Shown piece by piece: positions 23,377 through 50,019 of a stretch of 64,000 nucleotides of DNA. How positions within the stretch are numbered: position 1 is the stretch's first letter; each line of letters begins with the position of its first letter. The position numbers and the translations under genes are program-made. The stretch comes from Alphaproteobacteria bacterium. GTDB taxonomy: Bacteria > Pseudomonadota > Alphaproteobacteria > GCA-2731375. The stretch is from NCBI GenBank assembly GCA_965232515.1, contig CBDDPY010000002.1:1504001-1568000 (forward strand). The letters run 5' to 3'. The notes beneath the pieces were generated by a model, which did not search any database, was not told the DNA's origin, and saw only the letters and a program-made list of their open reading frames with translations.

Positions 23377-23468
23377 TTATAGTGACAGTTTACGGCGCCC
23401 CCAATAGCAATGGTGGCGCAGGCCGAGTTGGATACTTAAAAAAGGGTTTCAGTAAACTGTCACCGTAA
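23377..23468. repeat. ~92-bp terminal-inverted-repeat element, full copy 1
   Basis: TTATAGTGACAGTTTAC...GTAAACTGTCACCGTAA with internal CCCCAAT..GGCGC..GAGTTGG. A lone end lies at 23301-23316. Confidence 0.8.
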
Positions 23469-24290: not shown

Positions 24291-24340
24291 ATCTCAAAGT
24301 AGGGCATCTTGCTGATATTCGCCCAAAACGGCCATTCCCC

Positions 24341-24392: not shown

Positions 24393-24422
24393 GCTTATGA
24401 AGGGCAACAAAGGAGTTGCACT

Positions 24423-24878: not shown

Positions 24879-24900
24879 GGATCAAGAACCGGCTTCAGGC

Positions 24901-25167: not shown

Positions 25168-25214
25168 CGTGCCCCCCAGAACTGGTCATTCAGCCTGAGT
25201 GTTCGACTGTTTGA

Positions 25215-25525: not shown

Positions 25526-25562
25526 AGCAGCGCTCGTGGCGAGGCGCTCTTCAATCCCTTTG

Positions 25563-25889
25563 TCAGCGTTTCCGCTTCCCCCTTGCGATCTCTGTGGCGA
25601 GTGCTTCGAACCTCGGTTCCCAGAACCGCCGGAATGGGGCGAGCCAGTGGTCGACTTCTTCAAGGCCTGAGGCGTTGAGGGCGTAGATGCGGCGAGTGCC
25701 CTCCTCGGTCACCGTCGCGAACCCGTTCTCTCGCAACGTCCTGAGATGCTGCGAAACGGCCGGCTGGGTGATCCCGAATTCCCCACCCACGATCTCAACA
25801 ATCGCACCGGAGGAAAGTTCGTGATCGGACAGTAGTTCGAGGATACGCCTGCGCACCGGATCGCCAAGTATATCAAAAGCGTGCATCAC
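25563..25889 (-). CDS. ArsR-family regulator
   Basis: FDILGDPVRRRILELL, ITQPAVSQHLRTLR. Confidence 0.9.
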   Translation of the reverse strand: MMHAFDILGDPVRRRILELLSDHELSSGAIVEIVGGEFGITQPAVSQHLRTLRENGFATVTEEGTRRIYALNASGLEEVDHWLAPFRRFWEPRFEALATEIARGKRKR

Positions 25890-26527: not shown

Positions 26528-26655
26528 GTTTCGACTCCTAGCATAAGGCTGGACTAATATAAATTATCACTTATATCAAGTTGATCGACGACAGCCCTGT
26601 TGGGATTGCGGCTAGACATTACCGATCGCTAGCGGACGCGCCACCGACCGATATG

Positions 26656-26705
26656 GGCCAGAGAACGAACCGCTCTCTCCCGCGAGAGCGGTTCGTTCTC
26701 TGGCC
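26656..26705. repeat. Perfect 22-bp hairpin
   Basis: GGCCAGAGAACGAACCGCTCTC-tcccgc-GAGAGCGGTTCGTTCTCTGGCC. Confidence 0.85.
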
Positions 26706-26902
26706 GATTGCAGCCGTTGCAATACTGACATTGTGATTGTGGGCCAGTCTACTCGTCCGAAGGCGTCCTATGGACGATCTTGGACCACTATGCCGCAGCT
26801 TGGAAAAGACCCTGCTGATTTCGGTGGTTGCGTGCCCTTGCAACCATTCCTCAATCACCTTTTTTACTTGGAGCCCTTCCACCCGAGTGAGTCTATGAAA
26901 TA

Positions 26903-26923
26903 CAAATCCTGCCCCCGCAACCA
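26903..26923 (+). repeat. tRNA-fMet 3'-end fragment (att-like)
   Basis: CAAATCCTGCCCCCGCAACCA; no tRNA 5' half upstream. Confidence 0.75.
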
Positions 26924-27014
26924 GCATGCATCCAGATCGGCCGATGAAGCAGAACAAACAAGCAGCCGGGTTCGGGCGGAAGCGGCCGGTAGGCGGACCA
27001 GGCGGGCTTTCGGC

Positions 27015-27554
27015 CTAGGAGACAATCGCCGAAACGGCTCGATTGATTTGCGCGCCCAATTCGACGGCTTGATAGGTTGGCCGCAGCGGTCGCAGCGAGA
27101 CATCGACGTGGCGTCGAACGCACGCGTGGTCTTCGAGCTGTTGAAGCGACGTCGACAATGCGCGATCCGTGATTGGCACAAGATCGGCTTTGATCTCCCT
27201 GAACCGTCGGGGCGCCCCGGTAACGGCGAGTATGGGTAGGGTCCAGGCGCGGCGGAGCAAGGCGGCCTCAGGCTTTTCCTTCACGGTATCAATGAGCTGA
27301 CCGGCGACGAGCGCGATATCGCGCCCCTTGGCGGTCAGCCGGTACTCCGGGCGAAGCGGGTGACCGTGCCCGGGATTTCTTTCCAGCAGGCCCAGCCGGA
27401 TCAGATGCTCCAGGCTCGCTTTGAAGGCCGTCCGGGTGGCGCCGGTCGCAGCCAACAACGGCGCCTGCCGGCCCGGCATCCCGGCGCCGAGAAGCGCCAG
27501 AATGTCCAGCGACCAGGCCCTAGACGCGAGCTTGACAAGCATCTCTATGTCCAT
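27015..27554 (-). CDS. HxlR-type winged-helix regulator (tandem wHTH)
   Basis: Two WSL/WTL-wHTH halves; RNPGHGHPLRPEYRLT, ITDRALSTSL. Confidence 0.8.
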   Translation of the reverse strand: MDIEMLVKLASRAWSLDILALLGAGMPGRQAPLLAATGATRTAFKASLEHLIRLGLLERNPGHGHPLRPEYRLTAKGRDIALVAGQLIDTVKEKPEAALLRRAWTLPILAVTGAPRRFREIKADLVPITDRALSTSLQQLEDHACVRRHVDVSLRPLRPTYQAVELGAQINRAVSAIVS

Positions 27555-27593
27555 AAAGTATAGTAACTAAAATTTTGATCGAGGGGAAGCGCG

Positions 27594-27971
27594 ATGCCTG
27601 TCGCCACGCTGGATAACACCATAACGCTTGCACTGTCGGTCCGCGATCGTCGCCTGAGCGCGCAGTGGTACAGCGATAATCTGGGCTTTGCGCTGGTGCA
27701 TCACATCGACGATGCGGGGTGGACCGAGCTGCAGACCAAGACGGAAGGCGTCACCCTGGGTTTGGGCGAGCAGACCGAACCGACACCGGGCAACACCGTG
27801 CCTGTGTTCGGCGTCGCGGACATTGCAACCGCGCGCGCGAATCTCGAGGCGGCCGGCGTGAGGTTCGATGGCGAAACCGAAACCATTGAAGGCATGGTCA
27901 GCACCGCCACGTTTTATGATCCCGACGGAAATGCGCTGATGCTGGCGCAGGATCTTTCCGGTGGCGGATAG
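27594..27971 (+). CDS. VOC/glyoxalase family protein
   Basis: WYSDNLGF, PVFGVADI, TFYDPDGNALML. Confidence 0.88.
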   Translation: MPVATLDNTITLALSVRDRRLSAQWYSDNLGFALVHHIDDAGWTELQTKTEGVTLGLGEQTEPTPGNTVPVFGVADIATARANLEAAGVRFDGETETIEGMVSTATFYDPDGNALMLAQDLSGGG

Positions 27972-28065
27972 CGCTTGGGATCGAGAGACCGCTCCCCTGC
28001 CCGGCTGAGATAAATTGGACTCCGCCAAGCTAGCCGCCGTGCCCTGCCGAACGTCGATGATTAAT

Positions 28066-28111
28066 CGGAATTGGGTTTGGAAGTGAGGATTTCGTAAACT
28101 GTCACCGTAAT
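28066..28111. repeat. Half copy of the TIR element
   Basis: GATTTCGTAAACTGTCACCGTAAT. Confidence 0.75.
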
Positions 28112-28133
28112 CCCAGGTCGGCAATCCGGGCGT

Positions 28134-28784
28134 TCAAGCCGCGCGGCGCGCTCGCATCGCGGCGAGCGCGCCAAGCCCGGAGATCAGCAACCACACGCCT
28201 GCCGGCAGCGGGATCGGCGTGACGCCGAGCGTCAGCGTGTAGTCGTAACCGTAATCCCGCACGCCGGGACCGATCGAGCCTGCACCGAGCCCGACTTGTG
28301 CGCGATAGAGACCAGCGCCGAGGCCGAGTTCCGCCTCGGGTATCGCGAGCGACAGCGGCAAACTCACAGGAGGGTCGTTGGTGCTGAAAACCAGGGTGGA
28401 CGGCGTTCCCGCGATCCCATCGTCGGTTACGCCCGTTCTGACCTCCGTACTCGCATCGAAGGCCAAGCTGACCGTGCTGTCGGAGTTGTTGAAGAAAGAG
28501 GTCACGGTCAGCATCACGCTGCTAAGTTGAAGATTGGGCTGGATAGTGAACAGAAACCGGTCATCGTCGACGACAAGTGCGAATGACGAAAAACTGAGAA
28601 AGAACGATGTCGTTCCCGTGAAAACATTGTCGCCCAAGCCAAGCACGAATGGCGGCAGGCTGAGATCGAGATCGCCGTCGATGGCCTCGTCGTAGGTGAT
28701 CGGCGCCGCCTTCGCGGGCGCGGCGTGGCCGGCCATGGCCAGCAGAGCCAGGCCAGGCATGCCCTTGGTCAGTCGTCGAAACAT
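28134..28784 (-). CDS. VPLPA/PEP-CTERM surface protein, family C copy 1
   Basis: Leader MFRRLTKGMPGLALLA...AKAAPIT; C-terminus IPLPAGVWLLISGLGALAAMRARRAA. Confidence 0.85.
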   Translation of the reverse strand: MFRRLTKGMPGLALLAMAGHAAPAKAAPITYDEAIDGDLDLSLPPFVLGLGDNVFTGTTSFFLSFSSFALVVDDDRFLFTIQPNLQLSSVMLTVTSFFNNSDSTVSLAFDASTEVRTGVTDDGIAGTPSTLVFSTNDPPVSLPLSLAIPEAELGLGAGLYRAQVGLGAGSIGPGVRDYGYDYTLTLGVTPIPLPAGVWLLISGLGALAAMRARRAA

Positions 28785-28796
28785 GCCGCTCTAGCC

Positions 28797-28827
28797 ATTT
28801 GGGGATTAAGTAAACTGTCACCGTAAT
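28797..28827 (-). repeat. Left half of the TIR element, directly upstream of the family C gene
   Basis: Minus strand reads ATTACGGTGACAGTTTACTTAATCCCCAAAT. Confidence 0.8.
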
Positions 28828-28841
28828 TCCGGCGCGGCGCG

Positions 28842-29444
28842 TCACGCGGTCACGCGCACGCGCTTTGCCAAGGCAGAAGCGCCCAGTGCGCCGAGACCGG
28901 TAAGGAAGAGCGAGATAGAGGCGGGCAGCGGAATGGATGTTGGCGGCGATGCGATCCCGACCAGCACATTTGAGCCCGGCGCATAGTTAAACCTAGCGAA
29001 GTCACCGATCCTGTGGATTGGCGAGCCTCCGGAAATGCTACGAAATTCCCACCGAAAGGAGCTGTCGTTGTCGTCGATAATGGTAAAGCGCCCGCCACTG
29101 CCGAAGCTCATGAAAAGCGCCGTACCGGTTGCCGTCAATGCGTAGTCGCCGCGAATATCGATCGTCGAGTTTGCCGGGGTTAGCGTTGTGACAAAATTGA
29201 AGGGTGCGCCGTTGACCGCGCCGACAGCGTCGAGTGTCAGACTGTAATCGAGGATCTGCGCGGCAGAAGAAATGGTTCCGATGTCCTCAATCTCAAAAAG
29301 CCCCTCCATCGATGCACGCGGGCAACCCGTCTGGCAGGCGATGCCGCTTGTGTTGGAAAAGGCGGCATAGGTAATCGCTTTGGCCGCAACCGGGTGTAAG
29401 AGGCCAAGCGTGAGCGCAAGGACGGCAAGAATTCGAGGTTCCAT
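28842..29444 (-). CDS. VPLPA-CTERM surface protein, family B copy 1
   Basis: Leader MEPRILAVLALTLGLLHPVAAKA; C-terminus IPLPASISLFLTGLGALG. Alternative start at 29501. Confidence 0.85.
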   Translation of the reverse strand: MEPRILAVLALTLGLLHPVAAKAITYAAFSNTSGIACQTGCPRASMEGLFEIEDIGTISSAAQILDYSLTLDAVGAVNGAPFNFVTTLTPANSTIDIRGDYALTATGTALFMSFGSGGRFTIIDDNDSSFRWEFRSISGGSPIHRIGDFARFNYAPGSNVLVGIASPPTSIPLPASISLFLTGLGALGASALAKRVRVTA

Positions 29445-29497
29445 GGGTGGTTTCTTTCTCAAGTTGTGCGACGCAAGCCGCGGTACAAACAACTTGC

Positions 29498-30154
29498 TCA
29501 TGACATCTTCCAGGGGCCGATGCGGCGGCGCCGGGCGAGAGCAAGTCCGGCAAGGCCGCTGAGAACGAGGGCGAGACTGCCCGGACCGGTCACTTCCTGC
29601 GTTTCGGCCGTGATCGTGATGGGGCCCAGCGCCTCTTCGATGGCCAGCACGCCCACGAAACTTCCACGAGGAAACGACACCGGCCCGAACCGCGGGCTGA
29701 GGATTACCGTGAACGGGTCGGGGCCGCTTAGAGACAACAAGCCGTCCGTGGGCTGTCCGGTACCCAACACCGCATCCGTGATGGCAACGGCTGGATCGAT
29801 GAAGCTGAACTCGAGGTTAATGCTGATGGGGAGAGGGAGACCACTCGTTCCAATTCGCAGGTCGAACGGGTTTACGGGCCGCAGGGCGACGACGCCGGAC
29901 GGGTCAAAATCGATGTTCAAAAGGCCTGTTGCGCTGCCCAGCGTCACCTCGACCTGAAACTCGTCGCCCGCGCCAATCGTCGCGGTATCCGAGACCGGCG
30001 CAACGGATGCAAGGGTCGTCGGGCTTCCAAAAACGGATGTCGCGCTTGCCGACAGCGAGACCTCAAATCCGGTGAAATCCAGGATTGGCGCGGACTGGGC
30101 CGCCGTCGGAAGGCTCATTGCAAGTGCCAACGCCGCAATGGCTCTGATGAACAT
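29498..30154 (-). CDS. PEP-CTERM-like surface protein, family A (only intact copy)
   Basis: Signal peptide MFIRAIAALALAMSLPTAAQSA; C-terminus VTGPGSLALVLSGLAGLALARRRR. Confidence 0.82.
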   Translation of the reverse strand: MFIRAIAALALAMSLPTAAQSAPILDFTGFEVSLSASATSVFGSPTTLASVAPVSDTATIGAGDEFQVEVTLGSATGLLNIDFDPSGVVALRPVNPFDLRIGTSGLPLPISINLEFSFIDPAVAITDAVLGTGQPTDGLLSLSGPDPFTVILSPRFGPVSFPRGSFVGVLAIEEALGPITITAETQEVTGPGSLALVLSGLAGLALARRRRIGPWKMS

Positions 30155-30467
30155 GGTTTACTCCCTTACCGACTCGTCCGCACGGCCAAGCGTGTTCGGC
30201 GCTCTCGCGTTCGTAGCAGCTTTCAAAAAGGAGTTCATTGCACCAGCGTCCCAATCTGCATGGCGCCGATTGACCCGTGCCCCTTCGCTGGCCGGCGCGA
30301 GGCCGTGGATCGCAGACAGGGATGTCGTTCGCCGTCCAGCGAGGGGCCCGCGACATCGGTCGTTCGTGTCAAAAAGTGGGAAACGCCACGCATTTTGAGA
30401 CGCTGGTGCAACGAACTCTGTCGCGCGATGGGCTAATATTGGCCGCTTAGTTTGCGCGTGGGGAACA

Positions 30468-31481
30468 TTGACGGTGTCATCGGCCGACCCTATCCCATCG
30501 TCTCATTTCGATGCTTTGACCCTGGAGCCGCGGGTCCGGGCGGAAGCCTGGCGCGAGTTTTCGAAGGAGCTCGTCGATATCTCGCCGTTGCGTCAGCCCA
30601 AGCGCGACATCCGGTTCTCCTGGGATGCGTGGCACATCGAGGACGTTTTCGCTTACGGGTTTGTCGACGATTGTCTGATCGGCAAGCGGACAAAGAAACA
30701 TACCAGCCGGTCGCAGGGCTATCTCAGCATCAGGGTCTATAAGAACGGGCGCTCGCGCGGCCTGCTGGGCGATCAGATCTGCCACACGAGCGCCGGCAAC
30801 ATTCATGTGATGGACTTCTCGCTGGAACGTTACGGCGTCGACATCGACAACGTGGTCGACGGCGTTTACGTGCCTCAGGAAGCCGTCGGCTACGATCCGC
30901 GCCGCCACCCCGCTAGCTTCAATATCCCGGTGGACACGCCGCTCGGGCGGACGTTGAGCTTCGCCATCCAATCGCTGTTGCAGGATCTGCCGGACCTGCG
31001 CTGGCGCCATGCACACGATGTCAAGGCGCGTGTTCTTGCCCTTCTGCGGGCCGTCTTTGCGAATACCAGCGTGGATGACGAAGCGCGCGCCGCCTTTGCG
31101 GACGCCAGGCTTGGCGCCATGCGCCAGTTTGTCGACGGGCACCTGTCGGACGCGGACCTGGGCGTCGACCGCCTGTGCCGGGCCTTCAACGTCTCTCGGT
31201 CGACTCTGTTCCGGATCTTCGCCGACCTGGGGGGCGTGGAAGCCTATATCCGCGAACGTCGTACGGACTATGCCTTCCGGGATCTTCTGTATACAGAACC
31301 CGCGCGCGGCGCGGTCGGCAAGATCGCCGAGGCCTGGTGTTTCCACAGCGCAAGCCATTTTCACCGCCAGTTCCGCGCGCAATACGGCGCGCAGCCGAGC
31401 GAACTCCTGGGCGGTGCGGCGGCCGGCGCGGAACTTACGAGAGGCGATCAGGCCGGCCCGTCGTGGTATCTGGCCGAATAA
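30468..31481 (+). CDS. AraC-family regulator 1
   Basis: GYDPRRHP; LCRAFNVSRSTLFRIF; IAEAWCFHSASHFHRQFR. Confidence 0.85.
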   Translation: MTVSSADPIPSSHFDALTLEPRVRAEAWREFSKELVDISPLRQPKRDIRFSWDAWHIEDVFAYGFVDDCLIGKRTKKHTSRSQGYLSIRVYKNGRSRGLLGDQICHTSAGNIHVMDFSLERYGVDIDNVVDGVYVPQEAVGYDPRRHPASFNIPVDTPLGRTLSFAIQSLLQDLPDLRWRHAHDVKARVLALLRAVFANTSVDDEARAAFADARLGAMRQFVDGHLSDADLGVDRLCRAFNVSRSTLFRIFADLGGVEAYIRERRTDYAFRDLLYTEPARGAVGKIAEAWCFHSASHFHRQFRAQYGAQPSELLGGAAAGAELTRGDQAGPSWYLAE

Positions 31482-31549
31482 ACGCGATTGCGAGATCCGC
31501 GCCCGCTATGCGCCATCGGGATTCAGGATTCGATTGAGGCGTGAGGACG

Positions 31550-32584
31550 ATGGACGACCCGACGCTGATCGACAAGTTGAGCATCAATCTCGCCGGCGCC
31601 GAGCCGGCGCAGCGTGCCGACCTGTGGGCGGACGCGGTGCGCCCCCTTTACGATGTTTCGCCACTCGGCGGCACGGCGGAGAACCATTTGACCCGGGCGA
31701 CGGCTTGGCTCCTGGACTCGCTCGTCCTGATCAATGCGGCATTCGGCGGTCAGCTGGTCCATCGGCGTCAGCGGCATTTGAAGGCCGACGTCGCGGATTC
31801 CGTGGTGCTGGAAATCTATCTGTCCGGCGCCGTGCAGCGCGATCTGGCCGGCGAGCCGGTCTCCATCCGGCCGGGCGATATCAACGTCATGGACTACAGC
31901 CGTGAATACCAGGGCCGCTCGACGCCGGCGGAACTGGTCAATCTCCTGGTCTCTCACGACCTCATCGGCTACGACCCCAGCCGTCATCCGGGCTCGATGC
32001 GGATCCCCGGGGACAGCGCTGTCGGACAGGTTCTCGGCAACACGCTGCAAAATACCTTCCGGCAGCTCGACCGCGTCACCAAGGCCGAGGCGCCTTGCAT
32101 CGCCCGGGGGCTGACCGCGCTTCTGCGCAGCGTGTTGATCGAGGATGCCGCCAAGGCCCAGTCGTCTCCGGCCTTCGCCAGCGCCCGCAGCCAGGCCATT
32201 CGCGCTTACATCGAACGGCATCTGCGCGACGAAACGCTCGGCGCCGACACGATCTGCGCGCAGTTCAACATCTCCCGCGCGACCCTCTACCGCAACCTGA
32301 AGGCGGAGGGCGGGCTTGAGCGCTATGTCGTCGCCCGACGACTCGAAGCGGCCCTCATGTCTCTCGCCTTCGGGCCGGCGGAGCGTGGTGCGGTCGTCCG
32401 TGCGGCGGAGCATTGGCGTTTCGCCTCCACCACCCATTTCAGCCGGGAATTCCGCCGCCGGTTCGGCTTCGCGCCGAGCGATGTCGTCCACCAGGGACAG
32501 CGCGCGAACGTCGACGAACCGGGCGGCACGCACCAGCAACGCGAACGGCACATCAACATCCTGCCCTTCCTACGGCGTCTTTGA
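31550..32584 (+). CDS. AraC-family regulator 2
   Basis: GYDPSRHP; ICAQFNISRATLYR; HFSREFRRRFGFAPS. Confidence 0.87.
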   Translation: MDDPTLIDKLSINLAGAEPAQRADLWADAVRPLYDVSPLGGTAENHLTRATAWLLDSLVLINAAFGGQLVHRRQRHLKADVADSVVLEIYLSGAVQRDLAGEPVSIRPGDINVMDYSREYQGRSTPAELVNLLVSHDLIGYDPSRHPGSMRIPGDSAVGQVLGNTLQNTFRQLDRVTKAEAPCIARGLTALLRSVLIEDAAKAQSSPAFASARSQAIRAYIERHLRDETLGADTICAQFNISRATLYRNLKAEGGLERYVVARRLEAALMSLAFGPAERGAVVRAAEHWRFASTTHFSREFRRRFGFAPSDVVHQGQRANVDEPGGTHQQRERHINILPFLRRL

Positions 32585-32610
32585 GACGGTCAGACCACAA
32601 AGTCGCGACG
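32582..32610 (+). promoter_or_regulatory. Candidate AraC tandem operator
   Basis: TGAGACG-N15-CGCGACG (22-bp period), the same architecture as 38675-38703, upstream of a PEP-CTERM gene. Confidence 0.5.
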
Positions 32611-32713
32611 CCTGGATCACGACATCACGGGGCCGTTTCGCCAGGATAGCCTGACGTTCCGACCGCTTTGGCGCCCGCCTGCCAGCGGCTCGTTTTGTTT
32701 GAAGGATCCAGGC

Positions 32714-33262
32714 ATGATCAAAACGATACTCGCCTCCTGCGCCGCCGCCGCCATCGCATTTGGCGCCACCGCCGCCGCCGCGATGCCCCTGGCGTTCGAT
32801 TTCACCATCGACCTGACGGCAGGGCCCGACGGCACGGGGAGCTTCACGATCGACGGCGCGGAGCTGACGGGCAGCGGTCTTGAGATATTCGCGCCGAATA
32901 GCGGCAGCAACACCCTTTTTTCGTTCACCGCAATGGTCGGCGGCCTGACATACACGGCAGCCGACGATCCGAGCTTCGACGAGTTTCCGCAAGTCAGCTT
33001 CCAGGATGGCGTCGTCACCAGCATCAGCTACGCCGGTGAAATCGGCAATCAGTGCCTGAGCATCGGCGCGGGCGCTGGCCTCGGCGTTTTCTTCGGCGAC
33101 CTCTCCGGTTCACCTCTGGAATGCGCCGAACCTGGGTTCTCGTCCGGCGAGATCACCAACATCACCACGGACACGGCCAGTCCGGTTCCAGCGCCCGCGA
33201 CGGCACTGTTGTTCGCGACCGGGATCGGTGTTCTGGGGCTTTGGCGCCGTCGCCGCGCATGA
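32714..33262 (+). CDS. PEP-CTERM-type (VPAP) surface protein
   Basis: Signal peptide; C-terminus VPAPATALLFATGIGVLGLWRRRRA. Confidence 0.85.
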   Translation: MIKTILASCAAAAIAFGATAAAAMPLAFDFTIDLTAGPDGTGSFTIDGAELTGSGLEIFAPNSGSNTLFSFTAMVGGLTYTAADDPSFDEFPQVSFQDGVVTSISYAGEIGNQCLSIGAGAGLGVFFGDLSGSPLECAEPGFSSGEITNITTDTASPVPAPATALLFATGIGVLGLWRRRRA

Positions 33263-33546
33263 CGCTCGTGCGCGGGCTTCCTGTTTGCAACACCGTTTCA
33301 ACGCGTCGGCGAAGCGCAAGATCAACGGTTGACGTGCCTTTGTATCGCCGATGACGACCTGAAACTTGATTTTGCAGATGGTCCCACTCGCGCTGCCGGT
33401 CTTCCACGGCACGGATCCGACCGCGGCGCTGTTTGCCTTGAAGGGAAAGGCGCCGGACGGCTCGGTCTTTGGAGTTGGTTCGATCACCGACCGACTTGAT
33501 CGGAAACCGAGATCATCCGGGGATGTCAGTTCTGGGAGATGTAACG

Positions 33547-34167
33547 ATGAGGTTGATGAGCTTAGGTGCAGCCGTGGTCGCGGCTGGAATTGCAACCTTC
33601 GGTCCGCCGATCATAACCGCCAATGCCGCCGTTATCGTCACGGTGCAGGAAGTCGGTCAAAACGTGGTTTTCGAATCCACCGGCTCACTGGACATAGCCG
33701 GCCTCACGCCGATTGAACAGCAAAACACCTTCGGCTTGGTACGGGGCACGGAATTGTTTGTCTTTGGGACGCCCGGCGTTGACACTACAGTAGATGCTTA
33801 CTTAGCAACGTCCGTTCCGACAAATTTTGGCGGATCCGAGATATCCGCCCCGGACTCGTTCGTCGCGACCAGTCCTCCCGACAGCGCCTTCGGCGCCCTG
33901 ATCGGCCCTCCAGTCATTCGCCTGCCCTTGGGTTACACGTCGGGAACGCCGTTGATCTTCGAAATGGCGTTCATTGACGAGAGCTTCATGAGTATGGAGC
34001 TTACCCCAGGCACGTATGTCTGGACGTTGGAGAATGACGATACCGTCACCCTGCAAATCGGCGGCCCGGCCGAGGTGACGGCGCCGCCGACGTTGTCGAT
34101 GCTTGGGGCGGCCGTTGTCGGCCTGGGGCTGGTTGCCAGGCGCCGGCGCAAGGCCCGATCCCGCTAG
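33547..34167 (+). CDS. PEP-CTERM-like surface protein
   Basis: Signal peptide; VTVQEVGQNVVF..GSLD; TPGTYVW; C-terminus VTAPPTLSMLGAAVVGLGLVARRRRK. Confidence 0.82.
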   Translation: MRLMSLGAAVVAAGIATFGPPIITANAAVIVTVQEVGQNVVFESTGSLDIAGLTPIEQQNTFGLVRGTELFVFGTPGVDTTVDAYLATSVPTNFGGSEISAPDSFVATSPPDSAFGALIGPPVIRLPLGYTSGTPLIFEMAFIDESFMSMELTPGTYVWTLENDDTVTLQIGGPAEVTAPPTLSMLGAAVVGLGLVARRRRKARSR

Positions 34168-34171
34168 GACG

Positions 34172-34276
34172 ACGGCGACAGTTTACGAAATCGCTTTTTC
34201 GACACGCGTTCTGGCCGCGCTCCCCGCGCCATTTTGGAGAATTTGCAAACCATCACCGGTACTAAACTGTCACCGT
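34172..34276. repeat. TIR element, full copy (105 bp, reversed interior)
   Basis: ACGGCGACAGTTTAC...CTAAACTGTCACCGT. Confidence 0.75.
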
Positions 34277-34328
34277 TATTGGGTCGAACGCGCCTGCCCG
34301 TGCGGATGAGTTACTAATGGAGTAAACG

Positions 34329-34616
34329 ATGTTCATCAGAGCCATTGCGGCATTGGCACTGGCGATTGGCTTGCCGGCAGCGGCGCAATCCGCGCCAATC
34401 CTGGATTTCTCCGGATTTGAGGTCTCGCTTTCGACAAGCGCGACAAGCGTTTTTGGTAGCCCGACGACCCTTGCGTCCGTTGCGCCGGCCTCGGATACGG
34501 CAACGATTGGCGCCGGCGACGAATTCCAGGTCGAGGTGACGCTGGGCAGCGGAACAGGCCTCTTAAGCATCGACTTTGGTCCGTCCGACGCCGCCGTGTC
34601 GGCCCCTAAAACATGA
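34329..34616 (+). pseudogene. Family A copy 2 with large internal deletion (sorting signal lost)
   Basis: First ~86 codons are near-identical to the 30154 gene, then the sequence jumps to that gene's last ~25 nt (cgccgccg..tcggcccct). Confidence 0.8.
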
Positions 34617-34674
34617 CATGGGCAGGACGTTTGTACCGCTGCCTGCGTCGCACAAATTGAGAAAGAAACCACCC

Positions 34675-35271
34675 ATGGCATCCAGAATTCTTGCCGTCCT
34701 TGCGCTCACTCTTGGCCTCTTACACCCGGTGACGGCCAAAGCGATTACCTATACCGCCTTTTCCAACACAAGCGGCATCGCCTGCCAGACCGGATGCGTT
34801 GCAAGTGCAACGATGGAGGGCTTTTTTACGATTGCGGACATTGGAACCATTTCTTCTCCCGCGCAGATCCTCGATTACAGCCTGACACTCGACAACCGAA
34901 ATGTACCCCCTCCCTTCAGTTTCTTGACAACGCTAACCCCGGCAAACTCGACGATCGATATTCGCGGCGACTACGCATTGACCGCCACCGGTACGGAGCT
35001 TTTCATGAGCTTCGGCAATAGCGGGCGCTTTGTCATTGTCGCCAGCAACCTCTCCTTTCGATGGGAATTTCGCAGCATTGCCGGTGGCTCACCAATCCAC
35101 AGGATCGGTGACATCCATTCGTTTAACTATGCGCCGGGCACAAATGTGCTGGCCGGGATCGCATCACCGCCAACGTCCATTCCTCTGCCCGCCTCTATCT
35201 CGTTCTTCGCCACCGGTCTCGGCGCACTGGGCGCTTTCGCCTTCGCGAAGCGCGGGCGCAGGACCACGTGA
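34675..35271 (+). CDS. VPLPA-CTERM surface protein, family B copy 2
   Basis: Same framework as B1 with different loops; IPLPASISFFATGLG. Confidence 0.85.
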   Translation: MASRILAVLALTLGLLHPVTAKAITYTAFSNTSGIACQTGCVASATMEGFFTIADIGTISSPAQILDYSLTLDNRNVPPPFSFLTTLTPANSTIDIRGDYALTATGTELFMSFGNSGRFVIVASNLSFRWEFRSIAGGSPIHRIGDIHSFNYAPGTNVLAGIASPPTSIPLPASISFFATGLGALGAFAFAKRGRRTT

Positions 35272-35308
35272 CGCGCCGCGCCGCCCGGATACCGAAAGGC
35301 CCAATGGA

Positions 35309-35339
35309 ATTATGGTGACAGTTTGTTGAACTCCTAAAC
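35309..35339 (+). repeat. Degenerate left half of the TIR element before a family C gene
   Basis: ATTATGGTGACAGTTTGTTGAACTCCTAAAC. Confidence 0.7.
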
Positions 35340-35351
35340 AGTGAGAGCAAT

Positions 35352-35942
35352 ATGTTTCGACGACTGACGAAGGCGATGCTCGGCCTGGCCCTGCTGGCCA
35401 CGGCCAGCTACGCCGCGCCCGCAAAGGCGGCGCCGATCACCTTGCTGCTGACCTATGCCGAGTCCGGGGGCGGCACCATGACCGGAAGCGGCAGCGTCAC
35501 CTTCGACGACAGCCTGCTGGCGCCCGGCCTGATCACCATCGAAGCACCGCCCACGAGCCTCGACGCATTTTCGCTCATCCTGTTCGATCCCGTATTCCCG
35601 GGCGGATCGACGTCATTTGCGCTCGCCGATCTGTCGGAATGGCTTCTTTTGCCCGGCCCAACCGGCCGCGCCGAAGACATCTTCGACATTAACTTCTTCA
35701 TGAATACGGCCAATAGCGACGGATTCAGTTTCTCCGGCCTGGACCCAAACCTTATTGAGGTCTGTGACGGCTCGGCGGCTGGCAACCCCGATCCCGGGTG
35801 TAGCAGCCTCGGTTCAACGCCTCTGGCCGCACTCGAATTGCGCGACATCGCGGTCGCCGTGCCCCAGCCCGCCACCATCACCCTCCTCGGCGCTGGCCTC
35901 CTCGCCCTCGGCTGGGCCCGCCGCCGCGCCGCGTTGCGGTGA
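35352..35942 (+). CDS. PEP-CTERM-type (VPQP) surface protein, family C copy 2
   Basis: Leader nearly identical to C1 up to AKAAPIT, unrelated passenger domain, C-terminus VPQPATITLLGAGLLALGWARRR. Stop codon lies inside the following TIR. Confidence 0.85.
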   Translation: MFRRLTKAMLGLALLATASYAAPAKAAPITLLLTYAESGGGTMTGSGSVTFDDSLLAPGLITIEAPPTSLDAFSLILFDPVFPGGSTSFALADLSEWLLLPGPTGRAEDIFDINFFMNTANSDGFSFSGLDPNLIEVCDGSAAGNPDPGCSSLGSTPLAALELRDIAVAVPQPATITLLGAGLLALGWARRRAALR

Positions 35943-36025
35943 CAGTTTACTCGATCCCCAAATGATAATGGAGGCGCAACCGAAGTCGGTTTTTGAGAAA
36001 GGAATTCAGTAAACCGTCACTGTAA
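35934..36025. repeat. TIR element, full copy (92 bp)
   Basis: TTGCGGTGACAGTTTAC...GTAAACCGTCACTGTAA; internal CCCCAAAT..GGCGCAACCGAAGTCGG. Confidence 0.85.
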
Positions 36026-36115
36026 CTCCCGAGACCGGAAGGCTAAGACACCGCCGGCCTTGCCGACCTTCAGATCGGCCAAGCGTCCGGGTTCGACGCA
36101 TCTGGATCATGCCTT

Positions 36116-36258
36116 GCAGCCGGGACAGCTTTCCTGAAGGTCGGCCCCAACCTCGCAATGCGCACCGTCCTCACCGGCCCCGAGGCCGCCCGGCACGCCT
36201 ACCGTACGCTGGTCGACGGCGACGTCGACCAGAACGAGGCGCTGGTGCTGACGTCTTA
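36116..36258 (+). pseudogene. Decayed copy of the DUF2855 gene 3' end
   Basis: Aligns to 23131-23275 (ttcctgaag..cccaacctcgc..ctcaccggccccga..gcctaccg..gaacgaggcgctggtgct). Confidence 0.8.
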
Positions 36259-36319
36259 GGGATAGTCAGGCCGCGGTCGGCAACTGCCGAAGCATTGGCC
36301 CTATCGAAAATCCGCATCA

Positions 36320-36590
<271 letters not shown>

Positions 36591-36651
36591 AAGAACGACT
36601 TAGGCGCCGCGTCTCCGGGTATTTTCAGGCGAGAGTTTCCGATGTATTCCC

Positions 36652-37140
36652 GTGAAGGAAACGAAGGCAAGGCTCAATTGTGGCGAAGCACTCGGCTTGG
36701 GAGACGAAACTTTGAACGCACTTGATAGGGTCCTCCCCAAGGGACTTCTGGTCGTGTCCGCGGGCCTGCTGTGCTGGGGGCTGCTGGGATTGTTGGAATA
36801 CGCGTTCCCAGAGTTGGATCTGGGTCTTCAAAACGGTGATTTTCCGCCCGGCCTTCAGTTTTTGCACTTCTTTGCACTTGTACTGACGGGATCGATCTTC
36901 TTTTTCGGCTACCTTTGGCGGTGGCCCCATACGCCTTACGCGACAATCACGATGTACGCCGTGCTGGCCGCCATCTGCTTTATCGAGACCATAGATTTCG
37001 GTGCATTCGGAGGCGGAACGACCGGCGTCATGATCATGCTTTGCGAGTTCGCCCTTTATGTCGGACTATCGACTTATCTGCTTCGATCAAACGGCGTCCA
37101 TAGTCATTTCAGCCGGGCCGGGCAAAAGCATGCCGTCTAG
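36652..37140 (+). CDS. Hypothetical four-helix membrane protein
   Basis: Four hydrophobic segments; start uncertain. Confidence 0.7.
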   Translation: MKETKARLNCGEALGLGDETLNALDRVLPKGLLVVSAGLLCWGLLGLLEYAFPELDLGLQNGDFPPGLQFLHFFALVLTGSIFFFGYLWRWPHTPYATITMYAVLAAICFIETIDFGAFGGGTTGVMIMLCEFALYVGLSTYLLRSNGVHSHFSRAGQKHAV

Positions 37141-37254
37141 ACGGTTGGGAATGCCCGAAAGGGGCTCTTTCCGGTCATTGCGGGTTCCGCTACCAACGGC
37201 CGCTTTTTGACCGAACCGTCACATTCAGGCGCTGTCATATATTGGATTGGCGCT

Positions 37255-37410
37255 TTATGAAGCTGCTTGGAAAAGGCCATGCTGCTGTCGACGGTTGCGC
37301 TCCCCCGCAACCAATTTTATAGATTCTTCAGTGAAGCCCTCCCGATCGGAGGGCTTCGCCTTTTGCGCCGCCGGCGAAAGAATGCCCGCCAGCTTGCCTT
37401 CCCGTACGTC
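37255..37410 (-). pseudogene. C-terminal remnant of a large serine recombinase, with att-like palindrome
   Basis: EGKLAGILS..AQKAKPSDREGFTEESIKLVAGERNRR resembles the G(D/E)LAGIL...KLVAG(A)RN tail of alphaproteobacterial recombinase-family proteins. Palindrome GGTTGCG-CTCCCC-CGCAACC at 37293-37312. Confidence 0.6.
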
Positions 37411-37528
37411 GCGGCGCCTTCCCAACGGCCCCGACCGGGCATCACGCGCTTGCGGAGCTAACCAGCCGCAGACGGTGCTCAAGCTTGTCAGGCCACCGGC
37501 TCGGATACAGTATGGTACCCGTCTGACC

Positions 37529-38575
37529 ATGCGCTACGACATCGACACATATCACGACCATGCCCGCGCGTTCTTTGGGGTCAAGCTACTCACGCCCAGA
37601 GAGGAGTTCCAGGCAGACGTTACATTTCTGCTGCACGACAATCTGATCGCGACGGACGTCAAGTTCTCCAACCAAATAATGGATCGGAATCCACAGCGGA
37701 TCACCGAATTCGACACAGAGTATGTCCTGCTCGAGACGTATTCGCGCGGGCACACGCGCGGTCTCTCGGACGGGCAACACACGACACTCGTCAACCCCGG
37801 CATCGTCCACCTGATAGACTGGTCGCGGAGCTATGTCGGTATGACCAATAGCGTCGAGGGCATTGGCGCTCAAATTCCCCATTCGGTACTTGGCTACGAC
37901 CCCTCAAAACATCCCGCTTATCTAGCGCTCCCGATAGAAGCAAGCCGCGGTCGGCTACTGTCCCTCAGCCTGCAGCTATTTGTCGAGGCGTTGCGCCACG
38001 GTCCATCGCGGGACGCGGAGGTGCTCGGAGCGACCCTCGTCGGGCTGGTTCGCACTTGCTTTTTGGGAGAGCGCGACTGGGATCGTGACCCAGCGCAGGA
38101 CAGGTCACGACGCGCCCTGATCGAAGAGCATATCCGGCGCAATCTCGGTCCCGAGGCCCTCGATATCGACCGGGTTTGCCGTGATCTCGGCATGTCGCGG
38201 GCCACCCTCTACCGCACCTTTGGCGGCGGCATCGAACAGTTCGTCAAAAGCGAGCGGCTGAACAAATGTTTCGCTGAACTTGCAAAGGGCAAGAGGGAGG
38301 CCGGCACCGTGCGCCGGGTGGCGGAGCGCTGGGGGTTCTACGATCCAGGCAATTTCCGCCGCAGTTTTCGGGCGTCGTTCGGCATTTCGCCGTCCGATTG
38401 CCTGGACGGCCCGCCGGCGCAGGACGGCCGCGATGTTTCATACGTCGACCACCCGGTCATGCGGATTCTCCGCGATCGCCGGGCAGCGGCCGGAACGCTT
38501 GGTAGCGATGGTCCGTTTCCGACGCCCCCGCCAGACCCGACGCGCCTGAGGCAGGGCGACGCTTCGCCTACCTGA
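37529..38575 (+). CDS. AraC-family regulator 3
   Basis: GYDPSKHP; VCRDLGMSRATLYRTF; VAERWGFYDPGNFRRSFR. Confidence 0.85.
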   Translation: MRYDIDTYHDHARAFFGVKLLTPREEFQADVTFLLHDNLIATDVKFSNQIMDRNPQRITEFDTEYVLLETYSRGHTRGLSDGQHTTLVNPGIVHLIDWSRSYVGMTNSVEGIGAQIPHSVLGYDPSKHPAYLALPIEASRGRLLSLSLQLFVEALRHGPSRDAEVLGATLVGLVRTCFLGERDWDRDPAQDRSRRALIEEHIRRNLGPEALDIDRVCRDLGMSRATLYRTFGGGIEQFVKSERLNKCFAELAKGKREAGTVRRVAERWGFYDPGNFRRSFRASFGISPSDCLDGPPAQDGRDVSYVDHPVMRILRDRRAAAGTLGSDGPFPTPPPDPTRLRQGDASPT

Positions 38576-38674
38576 CCATCCCGCCGGCAAGCGGTGGGAT
38601 TCAGGCCGCGCCTAGCCCGCATTTCTCACCACCACCACGGTCACGCCGACTGACCCCCCTGGGCAGTGTCGGCG

Positions 38675-38703
38675 TGAGACGCAGCGACTACAAACTTGAG
38701 ACG
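38675..38703 (+). promoter_or_regulatory. Candidate AraC tandem operator
   Basis: TGAGACG-N15-TGAGACG, about 90 bp upstream of the RBS/ATG at 38794. Confidence 0.55.
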
Positions 38704-38793
38704 CTCAGCCCTTGGCGAAGGGGTCGCTCTCTCTAGAGTAGACACTGTGCAAAACGCGCGAACGAAGTAGCGAGCCAGCAAGGAGCTACAGAA

Positions 38794-39013
38794 ATGAAAT
38801 CTCTCTTATCTGCGGTAACCGTTGGGTGCAGCCTCGCAACTACATCCTGGAAGTTTCGTGGGCGTGCTGGCCATTGAAGAGGCGCTGGGCCCCATCACGA
38901 TCGCGGCCGACATACGGGAAGTTACCGCTCCGAGCAGCCTCGCGCTGGTTCTTAGCGGCCTTGCCGGACTTGCTCTCGCCCGCCGCCGCATCGGCCCCTG
39001 GAACATGACATGA
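38794..39013 (+). pseudogene. Chimeric remnant: foreign signal-peptide start fused out of frame to family A C-terminus
   Basis: AGGAG + MKSLLSAVTVGCSLATT, then in another frame GSFVGVLAIEEALGPITI..SLALVLSGLAGLALARRRIGPW. Confidence 0.7.
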
Positions 39014-39066
39014 GCAGGTTGTTTGTACCGCGGCTTGCGTCGCACAACTTGAGAAAGAAGCCACCC

Positions 39067-39669
39067 ATGAAATCTAGAACTCTTGCCGTCCTTGCGCTCA
39101 CGCTTGGCCTCTTACACCCGGTTGCGGCCAAAGCGATTATCTATACCGCCTTTTCCAACACAAGCGGCATCGCCTGCCAGACGGGTTGCCCGCGTGCATC
39201 GATGGAGGGGCTTTTTGAAATTGAGGACATAGGGACCATTTCTTCCCCCGCGCAGATCCTCGATTACAGCCTGACACTCGACGCTATCGGCGCGCTCAAC
39301 GGCGTCCCCTTCAATTTCGTCACAACGCTAACCCCGGCAAACTCGACGATCGATATTCGCGGCGACTACGCATTGACCGCCACCGGTACGGAGCTTTTCA
39401 TGAGCTTCGGCAGTGCCGGGCGCTTTACGATTATCGACGACAACAACAGCTCCTTTCGATGGGAATTTCGCAGCATTGCCGGAGAGTCGCCAATCCACAG
39501 GATCGGTGACCTCTCTTCGATCGAATATGCGCCGGGCACAAATGTGCTGGCCGGGGTCGCTTCACCGCCAACATCCATTCCGCTGCCCGCCTCCATCTCG
39601 CTCTTCCTTACCGGTCTCGGCGCACTGGGCGCTTCAGCCTTGGCAAAACGCGTGCGCGGGGCCGCGTGA
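39067..39669 (+). CDS. VPLPA-CTERM surface protein, family B copy 3
   Basis: Framework shared with B1/B2/B4; loops closest to B1. Confidence 0.85.
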   Translation: MKSRTLAVLALTLGLLHPVAAKAIIYTAFSNTSGIACQTGCPRASMEGLFEIEDIGTISSPAQILDYSLTLDAIGALNGVPFNFVTTLTPANSTIDIRGDYALTATGTELFMSFGSAGRFTIIDDNNSSFRWEFRSIAGESPIHRIGDLSSIEYAPGTNVLAGVASPPTSIPLPASISLFLTGLGALGASALAKRVRGAA

Positions 39670-39683
39670 CGCGCCGCGCCGGA

Positions 39684-39790
39684 ATTGCGGTGACAGTTTA
39701 TTCAGTCCCCAAATAGTGAAGGAAGCATGTTTCGACGACTGACGAAGACCATGCTCGGCTGAGCCCGCCGCCGCCGCGTGCGCTGGCGGC
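39684..39790 (+). pseudogene. TIR left half plus collapsed family C gene (leader joined to tail)
   Basis: ATTGCGGTGACAGTTTATTCAGTCCCCAAAT, then MFRRLTKTMLG* with ctcggc joined to tgagcccgccgccgc, as in the C2 3' end. Confidence 0.75.
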
Positions 39791-39900
39791 ACGGCGCAAC
39801 GGAAGACACGCAGTGCCTGCCTGACGGGCGCAGCGAGCTCACACCATAGTCCGCCGTGGGGACGTTTGCGGCTTCACTGAGATCTGTACGAGGAAGAACA

Positions 39901-40025
39901 ATGATCATCCCGTCGAGAGTTGTCACAACGGCTGCCACATTGGCGGCCTCGCGCTGGTTCTTAGCGGCCTTGCCGGACTTGCTCTCGCCCGCCGCTGCCG
40001 CATCGGCCCCTGGAACATGACATGA
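39901..40025 (+). pseudogene. Chimeric remnant: another leader fused to the family A tail
   Basis: GAGGAAG + MIIPSRVVTTAATLA, then out of frame LALVLSGLAGLALARR.RIGPWNMT. Confidence 0.65.
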
Positions 40026-40078
40026 GAACGTTGTTTGTACCGCTGCTTCCGTCCCACAGTTTGAGAAAGAAACCACCC

Positions 40079-40675
40079 ATGGAATCTCGGATTCTTGCCG
40101 TCCTTGCCCTCACGCTTGGCCTCTTACACCCGGTTGCGGCCAAAGCGATTACCTATACCGCCTTTTCCAGCACAAGCGGCGCCGCCTGCCAGATAGGATG
40201 CTTTCCAGACGCAAAGATGGAGGGGTTTTTTACGATTGAGGACATTGGAACCATTTCTTCTGCCGCGCAGATCCTCGATTATGGCCTGACAGTCGACAGC
40301 GGAAGTGCACCGCACCCCTTTCGGTTCTTCACAACGCTAACCCCGGCAAACTCGACGATCAGAATTGCCGGCGACTACGCATTGACCGCCACCGGTACGG
40401 AGCTTTTCATGAGCTTCGGCAGTGGTGGGCGCTTTACCATTACCTCGGACGGCGGCAGTGCCGCTGATTGGGTATTTCGCGCCATTACCGGAGGCCCACC
40501 AGTCCACAGGATCGGTATCTCTGAGGCTAGGTATGCGCCGGGTGCAAATGTGCTAATCGGGATCGCATCACCGCCAACGTCGATTCCGCTGCCCGCCTCC
40601 ATCTCGCTCTTCCTTACCGGTCTCGGCGCACTGGGCGCTTCAGCCTTGGCAAAGCGCGTGCGCGGGACCGCGTGA
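40079..40675 (+). CDS. VPLPA-CTERM surface protein, family B copy 4
   Basis: Most divergent loops of the four; IPLPASISLFLTGLG. Confidence 0.85.
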   Translation: MESRILAVLALTLGLLHPVAAKAITYTAFSSTSGAACQIGCFPDAKMEGFFTIEDIGTISSAAQILDYGLTVDSGSAPHPFRFFTTLTPANSTIRIAGDYALTATGTELFMSFGSGGRFTITSDGGSAADWVFRAITGGPPVHRIGISEARYAPGANVLIGIASPPTSIPLPASISLFLTGLGALGASALAKRVRGTA

Positions 40676-40696
40676 CGCGCCGCGCCGGAGTTACGA

Positions 40697-40786
40697 TTAC
40701 GGTGACAGTTTACTAGATCCCCAAATGTAATAGCGGCGCCACCGAAGTCGGCTTCGGAGGAAGAAACTCGTAAACCGTCAACATAA
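40697..40786. repeat. TIR element, full copy (90 bp)
   Basis: TTACGGTGACAGTTTAC..CCCCAAAT..GGCGCCACCGAAGTCGG..GTAAACCGTCAACATAA. Confidence 0.82.
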
Positions 40787-49965: not shown

Positions 49966-50019
49966 GGCGCCTTCGGAGTCGGTTCTGGAAATTGGAATCG
50001 AGTAAACTGTCACCGTAAT
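49966..50019. repeat. Right half of the TIR element
   Basis: GGCGCCTTCGGAGTCGG...GAGTAAACTGTCACCGTAAT, just after the GST stop. Confidence 0.78.

Follow-up and report, generated by a model that had tools for sequence, protein, structure and literature searches.

The stretch of DNA analysed here, referred to as the window, comprises 64,000 nucleotides of a marine-type alphaproteobacterial assembly (GCA_965232515.1, contig CBDDPY010000002.1, positions 1,504,001 to 1,568,000). At 28.1-40.8 kb it contains an array of genes for small proteins with a putative signal peptide, a passenger domain and a PEP-CTERM-type sorting tail, interleaved with three AraC-family regulator genes and with copies of a repetitive extragenic palindromic (REP) sequence. 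The array is probably a lineage-specific, fast-evolving cluster of small secreted PEP-CTERM-tailed proteins that was diversified by ordinary recombination over evolutionary time. From the comparison of copies and relatives, the REP sites mark the gain, loss and replacement of gene cassettes on that time scale. No evidence for a programmed switch was seen.

PEP-CTERM proteins are numerous in environmental bacteria, and their regulation has been described mainly for the sigma-54/PrsR type. To our knowledge, almost no PEP-CTERM protein has a known role. The locus offers a conserved regulator-target pair (AraC1, a 13-bp inverted repeat as operator candidate, and an A-(B)-C operon) and a natural series of cargo-gene gain, loss and replacement. 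It is also a case of REP elements, and of their inverted doublets (REPINs), at the break points of gene-sized insertions and deletions (indels). Both the AraC-operator-operon unit and the gene indels bounded by REPs deserve follow-up. Should the REP copies or the REP-associated tyrosine transposase (RAYT) play an active part, this would tie domesticated REP/RAYT systems to the turnover of gene cassettes, a function not found described for them in the literature examined.

Modules and the divergence of their copies

The array contains nine intact and four collapsed small-protein genes (Table 1), as counted from the open reading frame (ORF) list, a four-module DNA alignment and the translated remnants; the same numbers had been given in an earlier sequence-only reading of this DNA. 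The modules follow the order A-B-[repeat]-C-[repeat], with one unit on the minus strand (module 1, 30154-28134) and three partly deleted units on the plus strand, which matches the earlier description almost to the base. The plus-strand units are A2 (truncated)-B2-C2 (module 2, 34329-35942), A3 (remnant)-B3-C3 (remnant) (module 3, ~38845-39762) and A4 (remnant)-B4 (module 4, ~39942-40675). The longest inverted repeat found by the repeat search is 779 nucleotides in length with 92% identity (28752-29530 versus 38981-39759). There are 16 more repeat pairs, and the repeats of the array are far above chance.

C had been treated as one repeated module gene, which does not hold. C1 and C2 can be aligned by BLASTP at residues 1-30 only (83%), and their DNA similarity is 137 nucleotides in length, covering a REP, the ribosome-binding region and the signal peptide.

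The B paralogs are 79-89% identical in protein sequence. Their DNA divergence is 8-17% across the complete gene and reaches 21% in the passenger, with a synonymous divergence (dS) of 0.14-0.24. The ratio of nonsynonymous to synonymous divergence (dN/dS) is 0.42-1.4 in the B passenger. For B1, B3 and B4, the signal peptide and tail (small samples of 23 and 34 codons) give 0.11-0.30 in five of six comparisons, and the B1-B3 signal peptide gives 1.19. This pattern fits relaxed or diversifying selection on the exposed part. Three of the four A copies and one of the three C copies are dead, and their decay speaks against a repertoire that is being maintained; that all four B genes have survived suggests that B is under selection.

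The chance that the repeated modules are an assembly artefact, raised in the sequence-only reading as a way in which it could fail, is close to negligible. The one point in its favour is that the short-read contigs of the best public run (X6) end within the B genes. The copies are 8-21% divergent and carry distinct deletions, and X6 contigs cover, with zero differences, 26500-28905 (C1 to the B1 tail), 29464-34762 (A1 to the start of B2), 35055-36349 (the end of B2 to past the C2 REPIN) and 36333-38966. Since these contigs span most junctions, the assembly is taken to be sound. X6 may be the source of the assembly, and the contigs are therefore read support and not independent support.

REP elements at the cassette junctions

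The elements at the junctions had been called terminal inverted repeats (TIRs). Short inverted repeats do exist there, but doublets, folds and the Y1_Tnp genes flanked in relatives identify them as REP/REPIN elements. The exact 13-mer GGTGACAGTTTAC has seven copies in the genome, six of which are in the window. A 17-mer pattern (up to two mismatches) has 17 copies in the genome, with 10 in the window and 7 in the array, and the reversed control pattern has one. All 10 window copies lie between ORFs. Four inverted doublets (82-101 nucleotides) are present in the window, and the remaining copies are singlets. By eye, a single REP core looks weakly self-complementary. Hairpin folding of four elements, one of them on both strands and hence in five folds, gave z scores of -2.9 to -3.5 for two elements and weak values for the other two (-0.15 and -1.67). 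Inverted ends are present, and no duplicated flank of the kind left by miniature inverted-repeat transposable elements was noticed on reading the copies, although no formal search was made.

Of 33 genomes in the bacterial family, 24 contain the 17-mer. Because controls gave 0-2 copies, only about 10 of the 33 (those with 7-47 copies) are clearly above background. Copies in one relative (G044) are mostly inverted pairs 35-85 nucleotides apart, and in another (G011) two inverted copies bracket a 230-amino-acid ORF starting MARLARIVIPGIPHHVTQRGN. Pfam Y1_Tnp genes lie between or beside motif copies at G011:C26, G044:C48 and G011:C64, and have a copy on one side only at G045:C80. A RAYT gene is also present in G013, and the comparison of flanks with motif positions took in G011, G044, G045 and the source genome. 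The source genome has an intact 238-amino-acid RAYT-like gene (contig 2, about 3.708 Mb), flanked by degenerate (three-mismatch) REP copies, 2.2 Mb from the array, plus a truncated second copy. The earlier guess of a Y1/HUH transposase is thus borne out, both by the repeat-flanked genes of relatives and by the intact gene here.

REPINs are defined as inverted REP doublets paired with a RAYT transposase (Bertels and Rainey 2011, PMC3116915; also PMC3337134). By sequence, the former TIRs conform to this pattern. They share with it inverted doublets with a spacer, predicted hairpins, singlets as remnants, an extragenic position, and REP copies on either side of a RAYT-like gene in relatives. The present family differs in its low copy number in the source genome (17, with 10 of them within one 64-kb window), in a transposase slightly under the NCBIfam RAYT cut-off, and in the coincidence of REP copies with gene-cassette indels.

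A second REP/PEP-CTERM neighbourhood was observed on contig 2 of the genome, where two REP variants, GGTGACAGTGCAC and GGTGACAGTGGAC, occur at 1272992 and 1277373. One of them forms a short doublet next to a tRNA-like 3' fragment, and the other, a singlet, is located about 100 nucleotides upstream of a 274-amino-acid VPLPA-like gene and downstream of a 217-amino-acid PEP-CTERM gene, approximately 250 kb from the array.

The coincidence of short inverted-repeat elements with cassette junctions, as proposed earlier, is seen both within the array and in a relative. The stretch following B4 has a left flank that is 89-90% identical to the tail flanks of B1 and B3, and then one REP. Its right part is 78% identical to the interior of the C2 REPIN, compared with 54-61% for the starts of the C genes. 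Such a chimera would be expected after deletion of C between its two direct flanking REPs, or would predate the insertion of C. The passengers of C1 and C2 are unrelated; what the two genes share is a 5' end of REP and signal peptide and a 3' REP end.

Gene content and copy number of the locus vary among relatives. In L033, from a metagenome-assembled genome (MAG) labelled Minwuiaceae, AraC1, A and C1 are 86%, 89% and 79% identical to those of the array, and the regulator is divergent from A-[degenerate REP]-C. This locus is without B, has no second copy within its 10-kb flanks, and has different neighbours. In L034, from a MAG labelled Rhodovibrionaceae, an AraC gene (31-36% identical to AraC1-3) is divergent from a C1 homologue (56%) only, and no REP is present.

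REP sequences have served as join points elsewhere. The plasmid F'128 arose by recombination between imperfect REP sequences (Kofoid et al. 2003, as discussed in PMC1428787); by the account of that source, stress-induced amplification did not favour REPs as junctions. The array resembles the F'128 case in having short, imperfect REP copies as the join points of deletions and duplications. It differs in that the junctions are inside an operon and single small genes are gained or lost.

The REP copies might instead be kept for a function in cis, with REPINs acting as terminators or mRNA stabilisers, the singlet before C acting as an internal promoter or processing site, and the position at junctions a by-product. 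The elements lie just past stop codons or about 30 nucleotides ahead of the C start, the hairpins are predicted at -33 to -36 kcal/mol, and a degenerate copy is retained before C in L033. Two of the three sigma-70-like matches in the locus are inside REP copies, but the promoter and terminator scan is at chance level (three matches versus 2.8 expected). No T run was read after the hairpins, two of the four folded elements are no better than shuffles, L034 is without such an element, and no Rfam family reaches its gathering score within 22000-52000. A cis function is considered unlikely as the explanation.

A further possibility is that the 5' side of the REP singlet in the AraC-controlled operon is a dock for cassettes, at which promoterless PEP-CTERM genes are inserted, swapped or deleted via RAYT or REP-guided recombination. 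This would fit the position of B, which lies just 5' of REP and is absent from the L033 operon, and the absence of C between direct REPs in module 4. It would also fit the unrelated passengers of C1 and C2 in shared REP flanks, and the REP singlet before the VPLPA-like gene 250 kb away. If true, surface-protein genes would have an integron-like platform made of REP/RAYT components. This reading is given a very low probability.

Ordinary recombination over evolutionary time is preferred, and the following history is proposed for it. The core unit would be an AraC-family regulator divergent from a PEP-CTERM operon, with the 13-bp inverted repeat between them as the putative AraC1 operator. The simplest series suggested by the loci begins with a regulator divergent from C alone, to which A was added (A-REP-C), and then B just 5' of the REP (A-B-REP-C). 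This unit would then have been copied once inverted and twice direct, with the operator left behind, and copies would subsequently have lost A or C by deletion. REPs and REPINs would be non-autonomous partners of the RAYT-type Y1/HUH transposase, located after or between genes and carried along in duplications. REP copies would have been the break or join points, as in the sequence both the missing C of module 4 and the variable occurrence of B coincide exactly with a REP. The tails would be cleaved and passed on by XrtA-EpsI, and the outcome would be a small diverging repertoire of surface or matrix proteins.

Several observations weigh against this reading. That all four B genes are intact with a high passenger dN/dS would be compatible with selection for diversity as well. 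The order of events, with B either gained here or lost in L033, is drawn from a pair of outgroup loci and no tree. Bit scores of the RAYT-like proteins are 69.5 and 74.1, above the Pfam Y1_Tnp cut-off and below the NCBIfam cut-off of 80 for REP_Tyr_transpos (NF047646). One relative (G024, 94% complete) has 12 motif copies and no Y1_Tnp match. The copy number of the source genome is low (17) and mostly owed to the duplicated modules, and so gives no sign of active REPINs here. Finally, modules 2-4 are without the conserved operator and may be silent.

Table 1. Features of the array and its surroundings, in window coordinates.
Feature	Coordinates	Strand	Description
REPIN outside array coordinates	23377..23468 (doublet at 23381)		fold -36.4 kcal/mol, z -3.4
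REP singlet 3' of C1	28084..28122 (core 28094-28106)	-	exact 13-mer GGTGACAGTTTAC; repeats D7/I16
C1	28134..28784	-	216 aa; putative signal peptide, passenger and VPLPA-CTERM tail
REP singlet between B1 and C1	28796..28830	-	~30 nt ahead of C1 start
B1	28842..29501	-	219-aa ORF; probable start an internal Met (28842-29444, 200 aa)
A1	29498..30154	-	218 aa; sole intact A copy
Candidate operator	30238..30411		exact 13-bp inverted repeat TTGCACCAGCGTC, 30238-30250(+)/30399-30411(-); repeat I15
AraC1	30468..31481	+	337 aa; divergent from A1-B1-C1; HTH_18
AraC2	31541..32584	+	347 aa; AraC_binding_2 and HTH_18
D	32699..33262	+	187-aa PEP-CTERM protein
E	33469..34167	+	232 aa; PEP-CTERM-like tail, C-terminal end ...APPTLSMLGAAVVGLGLVARRRRK
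REPIN between E and A2	34174..34274		101-nt inverted doublet; fold -33.5 kcal/mol, z -1.67
A2	34329..34616	+	collapsed; internal deletion, stops after 95 aa; 84% to A1 over residues 20-93
B2	34576..35271	+	probable start 34675; 79% aa identity to B1
Degenerate REP singlet between B2 and C2	35306..35345	+	repeats D4/I10
C2	35352..35942	+	196-aa PEP-CTERM protein; only signal peptide and flanks common with C1
REPIN 3' of C2	35934..36025 (doublet at 35938)		fold -33 kcal/mol, z -2.9
Paralogous segment	36116..36468	+	to 23132-23270 (85%) and 24026-24181 (80%) by blastn; tRNA-Met 3'-end fragments ending 36349 and 36468
Hydrophobic ORF	36652..37140	+	162 aa; no Pfam or NCBIfam match
AraC3	37529..38575	+	ORF opens 37247, probable start 37529; HTH_18, HTH_AraC
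A3 remnant	~38845..39013	+	last ~55 codons only
B3	39010..39669	+	probable start 39067; 89% aa identity to B1
REP singlet 3' of B3	39685..39726	+	repeat D5
C3 remnant	39727..39762	+	11 codons of C signal peptide, then stop
A4 remnant	~39942..40021	+	last ~27 codons only
B4	40022..40675	+	probable start 40079; 79% aa identity to B1
REPIN directly 3' of B4	40697..40786 (doublet at 40701)		chimera of B-tail flank, REP and C2-REPIN interior
REP singlet outside array coordinates	50002..50018	-	motif match

Search for ongoing rearrangement

Rearranged forms of the array were looked for in the assembled contigs of public runs (Logan), from which rare variants are lost. None was found in these contigs, and the test is a weak one because they break inside the repeated B genes.

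Three joints in X6 were considered as rearrangements, and none was counted. Two of them (26817 to 36335, and 36469 to 37262) are on one high-depth (~800) contig, with other letters between, that could not be placed. The third (28827 to 36360, depth 63) has differences that fit the paralogous copy at 23 kb. The X6 depth is 867 at 36112-36645 and 258 at 37180-37713, compared with a genome level of about 80. A blastn search of the assembly found no copy of the high-depth contig, so that unassembled multi-copy or foreign sequence would appear to share these two stretches. Runs X9 and X3 contain pieces that are 85-98% alike, including B3-, D-, AraC2- and AraC3-like parts, with short joints (for example, a B3-like end to the start of C2). 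As the sides are short and the depth is 4-27, they are taken as a hint that relatives exist.

Neither recombinase families nor IntI/Phage_integrase were matched among the 63 window ORFs scanned (16 + 47, those passing the filter on G+C content at third codon positions, GC3). The inverted arms of the array are paralogous genes 82-92% identical, and not near-identical short crossover sites. For these two reasons, a shufflon or other invertible-segment system was rejected. An integron was rejected on the lack of IntI among these ORFs. The array does resemble integron cassette arrays in its short, mostly promoterless ORFs, each followed by an imperfect inverted repeat, behind a regulated promoter, and in a cassette content that varies between relatives. 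It differs from them in that each unit has only two to three cassettes and in the missing IntI. Read by eye, the REP repeat presumably lacks the attC core sites.

The sequence-only reading proposed a recombination-driven, variable surface repertoire, built and reshuffled at the TIRs. The repeats at the junctions and the differences between relatives stand; an ongoing or dedicated shuffling system was not seen. In its active form, cassettes would be reshuffled at repeats within populations, via RAYT or homologous recombination, for phage or grazer evasion or for variation in adhesion. Such a system would account for a REP at every cassette junction, two indels that map to REP, and the common flanks of C1 and C2 around passengers that are not common. 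The four intact B genes with their passenger dN/dS, the 779-nucleotide inverted repeat (which could support inversion) and the intact RAYT-like gene in the genome are also on its side. Set against these, there is no recombinase among the scanned ORFs, and the RAYT-like gene is 2.2 Mb away. At 8-21% DNA difference and with the dS given above, the copies are ill suited to frequent homologous exchange. Furthermore, copies of A and C have decayed, and modules 2-4 are without the operator. Active variation of this kind is regarded as highly improbable. The accompanying statement that no described system has this architecture was too strong, each part being of a known kind.

Regulators, cargo proteins and surroundings

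The three AraC genes carry the previously noted motif GYDPx(R/K)HP in their translations (as GYDPRRHP, GYDPSRHP and GYDPSKHP). AraC1, AraC2 and AraC3 score 50.8, 37.5 and 42.3 bits to HTH_18, where the cut-off is 33.6. Their mutual identity is only 31-32%, which indicates old paralogs. The best NCBIfam match of all three is FeaR, with 60.6, 84.2 and 74.1 bits, far below the equivalog cut-off of 199. They resemble FeaR-type AraC/XylS regulators in the AraC_binding_2 N-terminal domain (AraC2) and the C-terminal HTH_18. They differ in these low scores and in having exported PEP-CTERM proteins, and not catabolic genes, as neighbours.

The association of AraC genes with the cassettes had been pointed out, and it holds in three genomes. 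L033 and L034 both retain the divergent arrangement. In a further relative (G012), a glycine-rich PEP-CTERM gene comes after an AraC2 orthologue (67%), in the position that D has after AraC2 in the array. The protein in question (L022, G012:C139, 2644-3567) is 307 amino acids in length, glycine-rich and low in complexity, and unlike D; the regulator is conserved and the neighbouring cargo is different. A related-locus search using AraC2 alone found none. No paper tying AraC regulators to PEP-CTERM genes was found in a literature search; the two terms co-occur in four papers, but never in the title or abstract.

The arms of the 13-bp inverted repeat are about 150 bp apart, and both are in invariant blocks of the alignment with the L033 intergenic region. 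Mean column identity between the two AraC1/A intergenic regions is 88%. Only two exact copies of TTGCACCAGCGTC are present in the window, and its count at up to two mismatches is at chance level. The repeat is probably the AraC1 operator. Homology between modules 1 and 2 begins only about 55 nucleotides before the A start, from which it follows that modules 2-4 are without the operator.

One more AraC-type regulator was observed beside exosortase cargo. At 61259-63596 of the window, a 7TMR-DISM sensor fused to an AraC helix-turn-helix (606 amino acids) is divergent from a 99-amino-acid PEP-CTERM gene.

A curated sorting-tail cut-off is reached by three of the nine intact genes, and the other six are near-threshold or were recognised by eye. 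The tail of C1 is above the VPLPA-CTERM cut-off of TIGR03370 (37.8 versus 25.35 bits), that of C2 above the Pfam PEP-CTERM cut-off of PF07589 (24.6 versus 20.7), and that of D above the cut-off of TIGR02595 (19.2 versus 16). The B1-B4 tails, at 22.8-23.6 bits (B1, 23.3), are slightly below the TIGR03370 cut-off. A1 and E have only sub-cut-off matches to the tails of PEP-CTERM family models (NF041538 for E). The N-termini are hydrophobic and end in A-x-A, as read by eye in the ORF translations, and the AlphaFold2 model of B1 has a helix at residues 3-14.

The passengers are lineage-restricted. B has five matches among 5.8 billion clustered proteins, and two close and 49 weak matches (E 3e-8 to 9e-4) among 1.84 billion representatives. 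VPLPA-CTERM tails are present on 15 of 36 aligned B-family members. In 40 relatives searched, B was not found except for a weak match in G002; the sole genome of the same genus is only 81% complete. A metagenome scan with the B alignment returned only two relatives (27-28%), each a single gene in a low-GC contig. C1 has eight relatives, with homologues 55-80% identical in six database proteins. C2 has six, at 40-73% identity.

The B1 model, built from a 36-sequence alignment (pLDDT 89), has an all-beta passenger between a signal helix and a C-terminal helix. An earlier fold from six sequences (pLDDT 44) was of no use. No solved fold was found above noise for the model (best Foldseek E 0.047; best VIA-align Z 5.1), and VIA-align gives small beta-barrel-like rows at Z 3-5. 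The predicted B fold is left unnamed, and the absence of a match is no proof of novelty.

Three tandem paralogous small secreted-protein genes were observed elsewhere in the genome (contig 2, 6780869-6783448). They end in ...PVSLPGTLPLMLGALG(L/F)GWLCCR..., another PEP-CTERM-like tail variant. Their N-terminal AAAITY...TGTIETDG resembles the consensus of the B superfamily.

The genome is 7.39 Mb with 65.5% G+C, and the assembly is 96% complete. It has a single exosortase (PF09721, 229 bits), assigned to XrtA by TIGR03109 (315.1 versus a cut-off of 208) and carrying an EpsI domain. XrtA-EpsI adjoins a stp1 glycosyltransferase, with PrsR (684.9 bits) 8 kb away, in a canonical extracellular polysaccharide (EPS) locus 5 Mb from the array. 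The sole match to XrtD (TIGR04152) in this assembly is the XrtA gene, at 154.9-156.3 bits versus a cut-off of 400. Without XrtD, processing of the VPLPA-flavoured tails would fall to XrtA. Genome-wide, there are at least 40 PEP-CTERM tail matches. The proposal that the array genes are exosortase targets, for which an exosortase gene was to be sought in the genome, is therefore plausible, and the proteins would most likely be cleaved by XrtA-EpsI.

Most PEP-CTERM genes are single-gene operons with large upstream intergenic regions and a sigma-54/PrsR site, and further PEP-CTERM regulators are still to be found, according to Haft et al. (2006, PMC1569441). The array resembles this PEP-CTERM/XrtA system in its small proteins (a putative signal peptide, hardly any recognisable passenger, and at the C-terminus a motif with transmembrane helix and basic cluster), in the many cargo genes per genome, and in the separate EPS locus with XrtA, EpsI, stp1 and PrsR. 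It differs in its tight A-B-C operons beside AraC-type regulators, and in VPLPA-flavour tails where the dedicated exosortase of the VPLPA-CTERM/XrtD system is absent.

Five tRNA-Met 3'-end fragments (~12-30 nucleotides) are present in direct orientation at 24171, 26915, 36339, 36458 and 37305, and no intact tRNA gene was found in the window. The fragments match the tRNA-Met genes (anticodon CAT) exactly or almost exactly and may be att scars of integrative elements. An IS66 fragment (20540-20752) and a DDE fragment (6639-7016) are also present. The cassettes have a GC3 of 0.67-0.80, compared with 0.85-0.92 in housekeeping neighbours. Together with the paralogous segment (Table 1), these features point to a plastic, possibly island-derived zone.

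The 23-41 kb region might accordingly be what is left of one or several integrative islands inserted at a tRNA-Met gene, with the cassettes and AraC genes as imported cargo and the repeats as debris. The tRNA fragments, the insertion-sequence pieces and the low GC3 all favour this, as does the different neighbourhood of the AraC1-A-C unit in L033. No integrase is present among the scanned ORFs, the tRNA fragments are short, and vertical descent has spread the REP family widely among these bacteria. An island origin is rather unlikely on this evidence. It is compatible with a lineage-specific cluster diversified by ordinary recombination.

Two minor observations were made in the remainder of the window. 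At 5490-11231, two copies of a ketopantoate-reductase C-terminus bracket a low-GC insert (45% G+C at 8-10 kb) that contains a DDE transposase fragment, a 532-amino-acid ORF and a 157-amino-acid ORF, and looks like an IS-mediated insertion with partial gene duplication. Pairs of an ArsR-family regulator and an AHSA1/SRPBCC-domain gene recur at 24309-26527 and 50264-51122, the latter just after the REP singlet at 50002.

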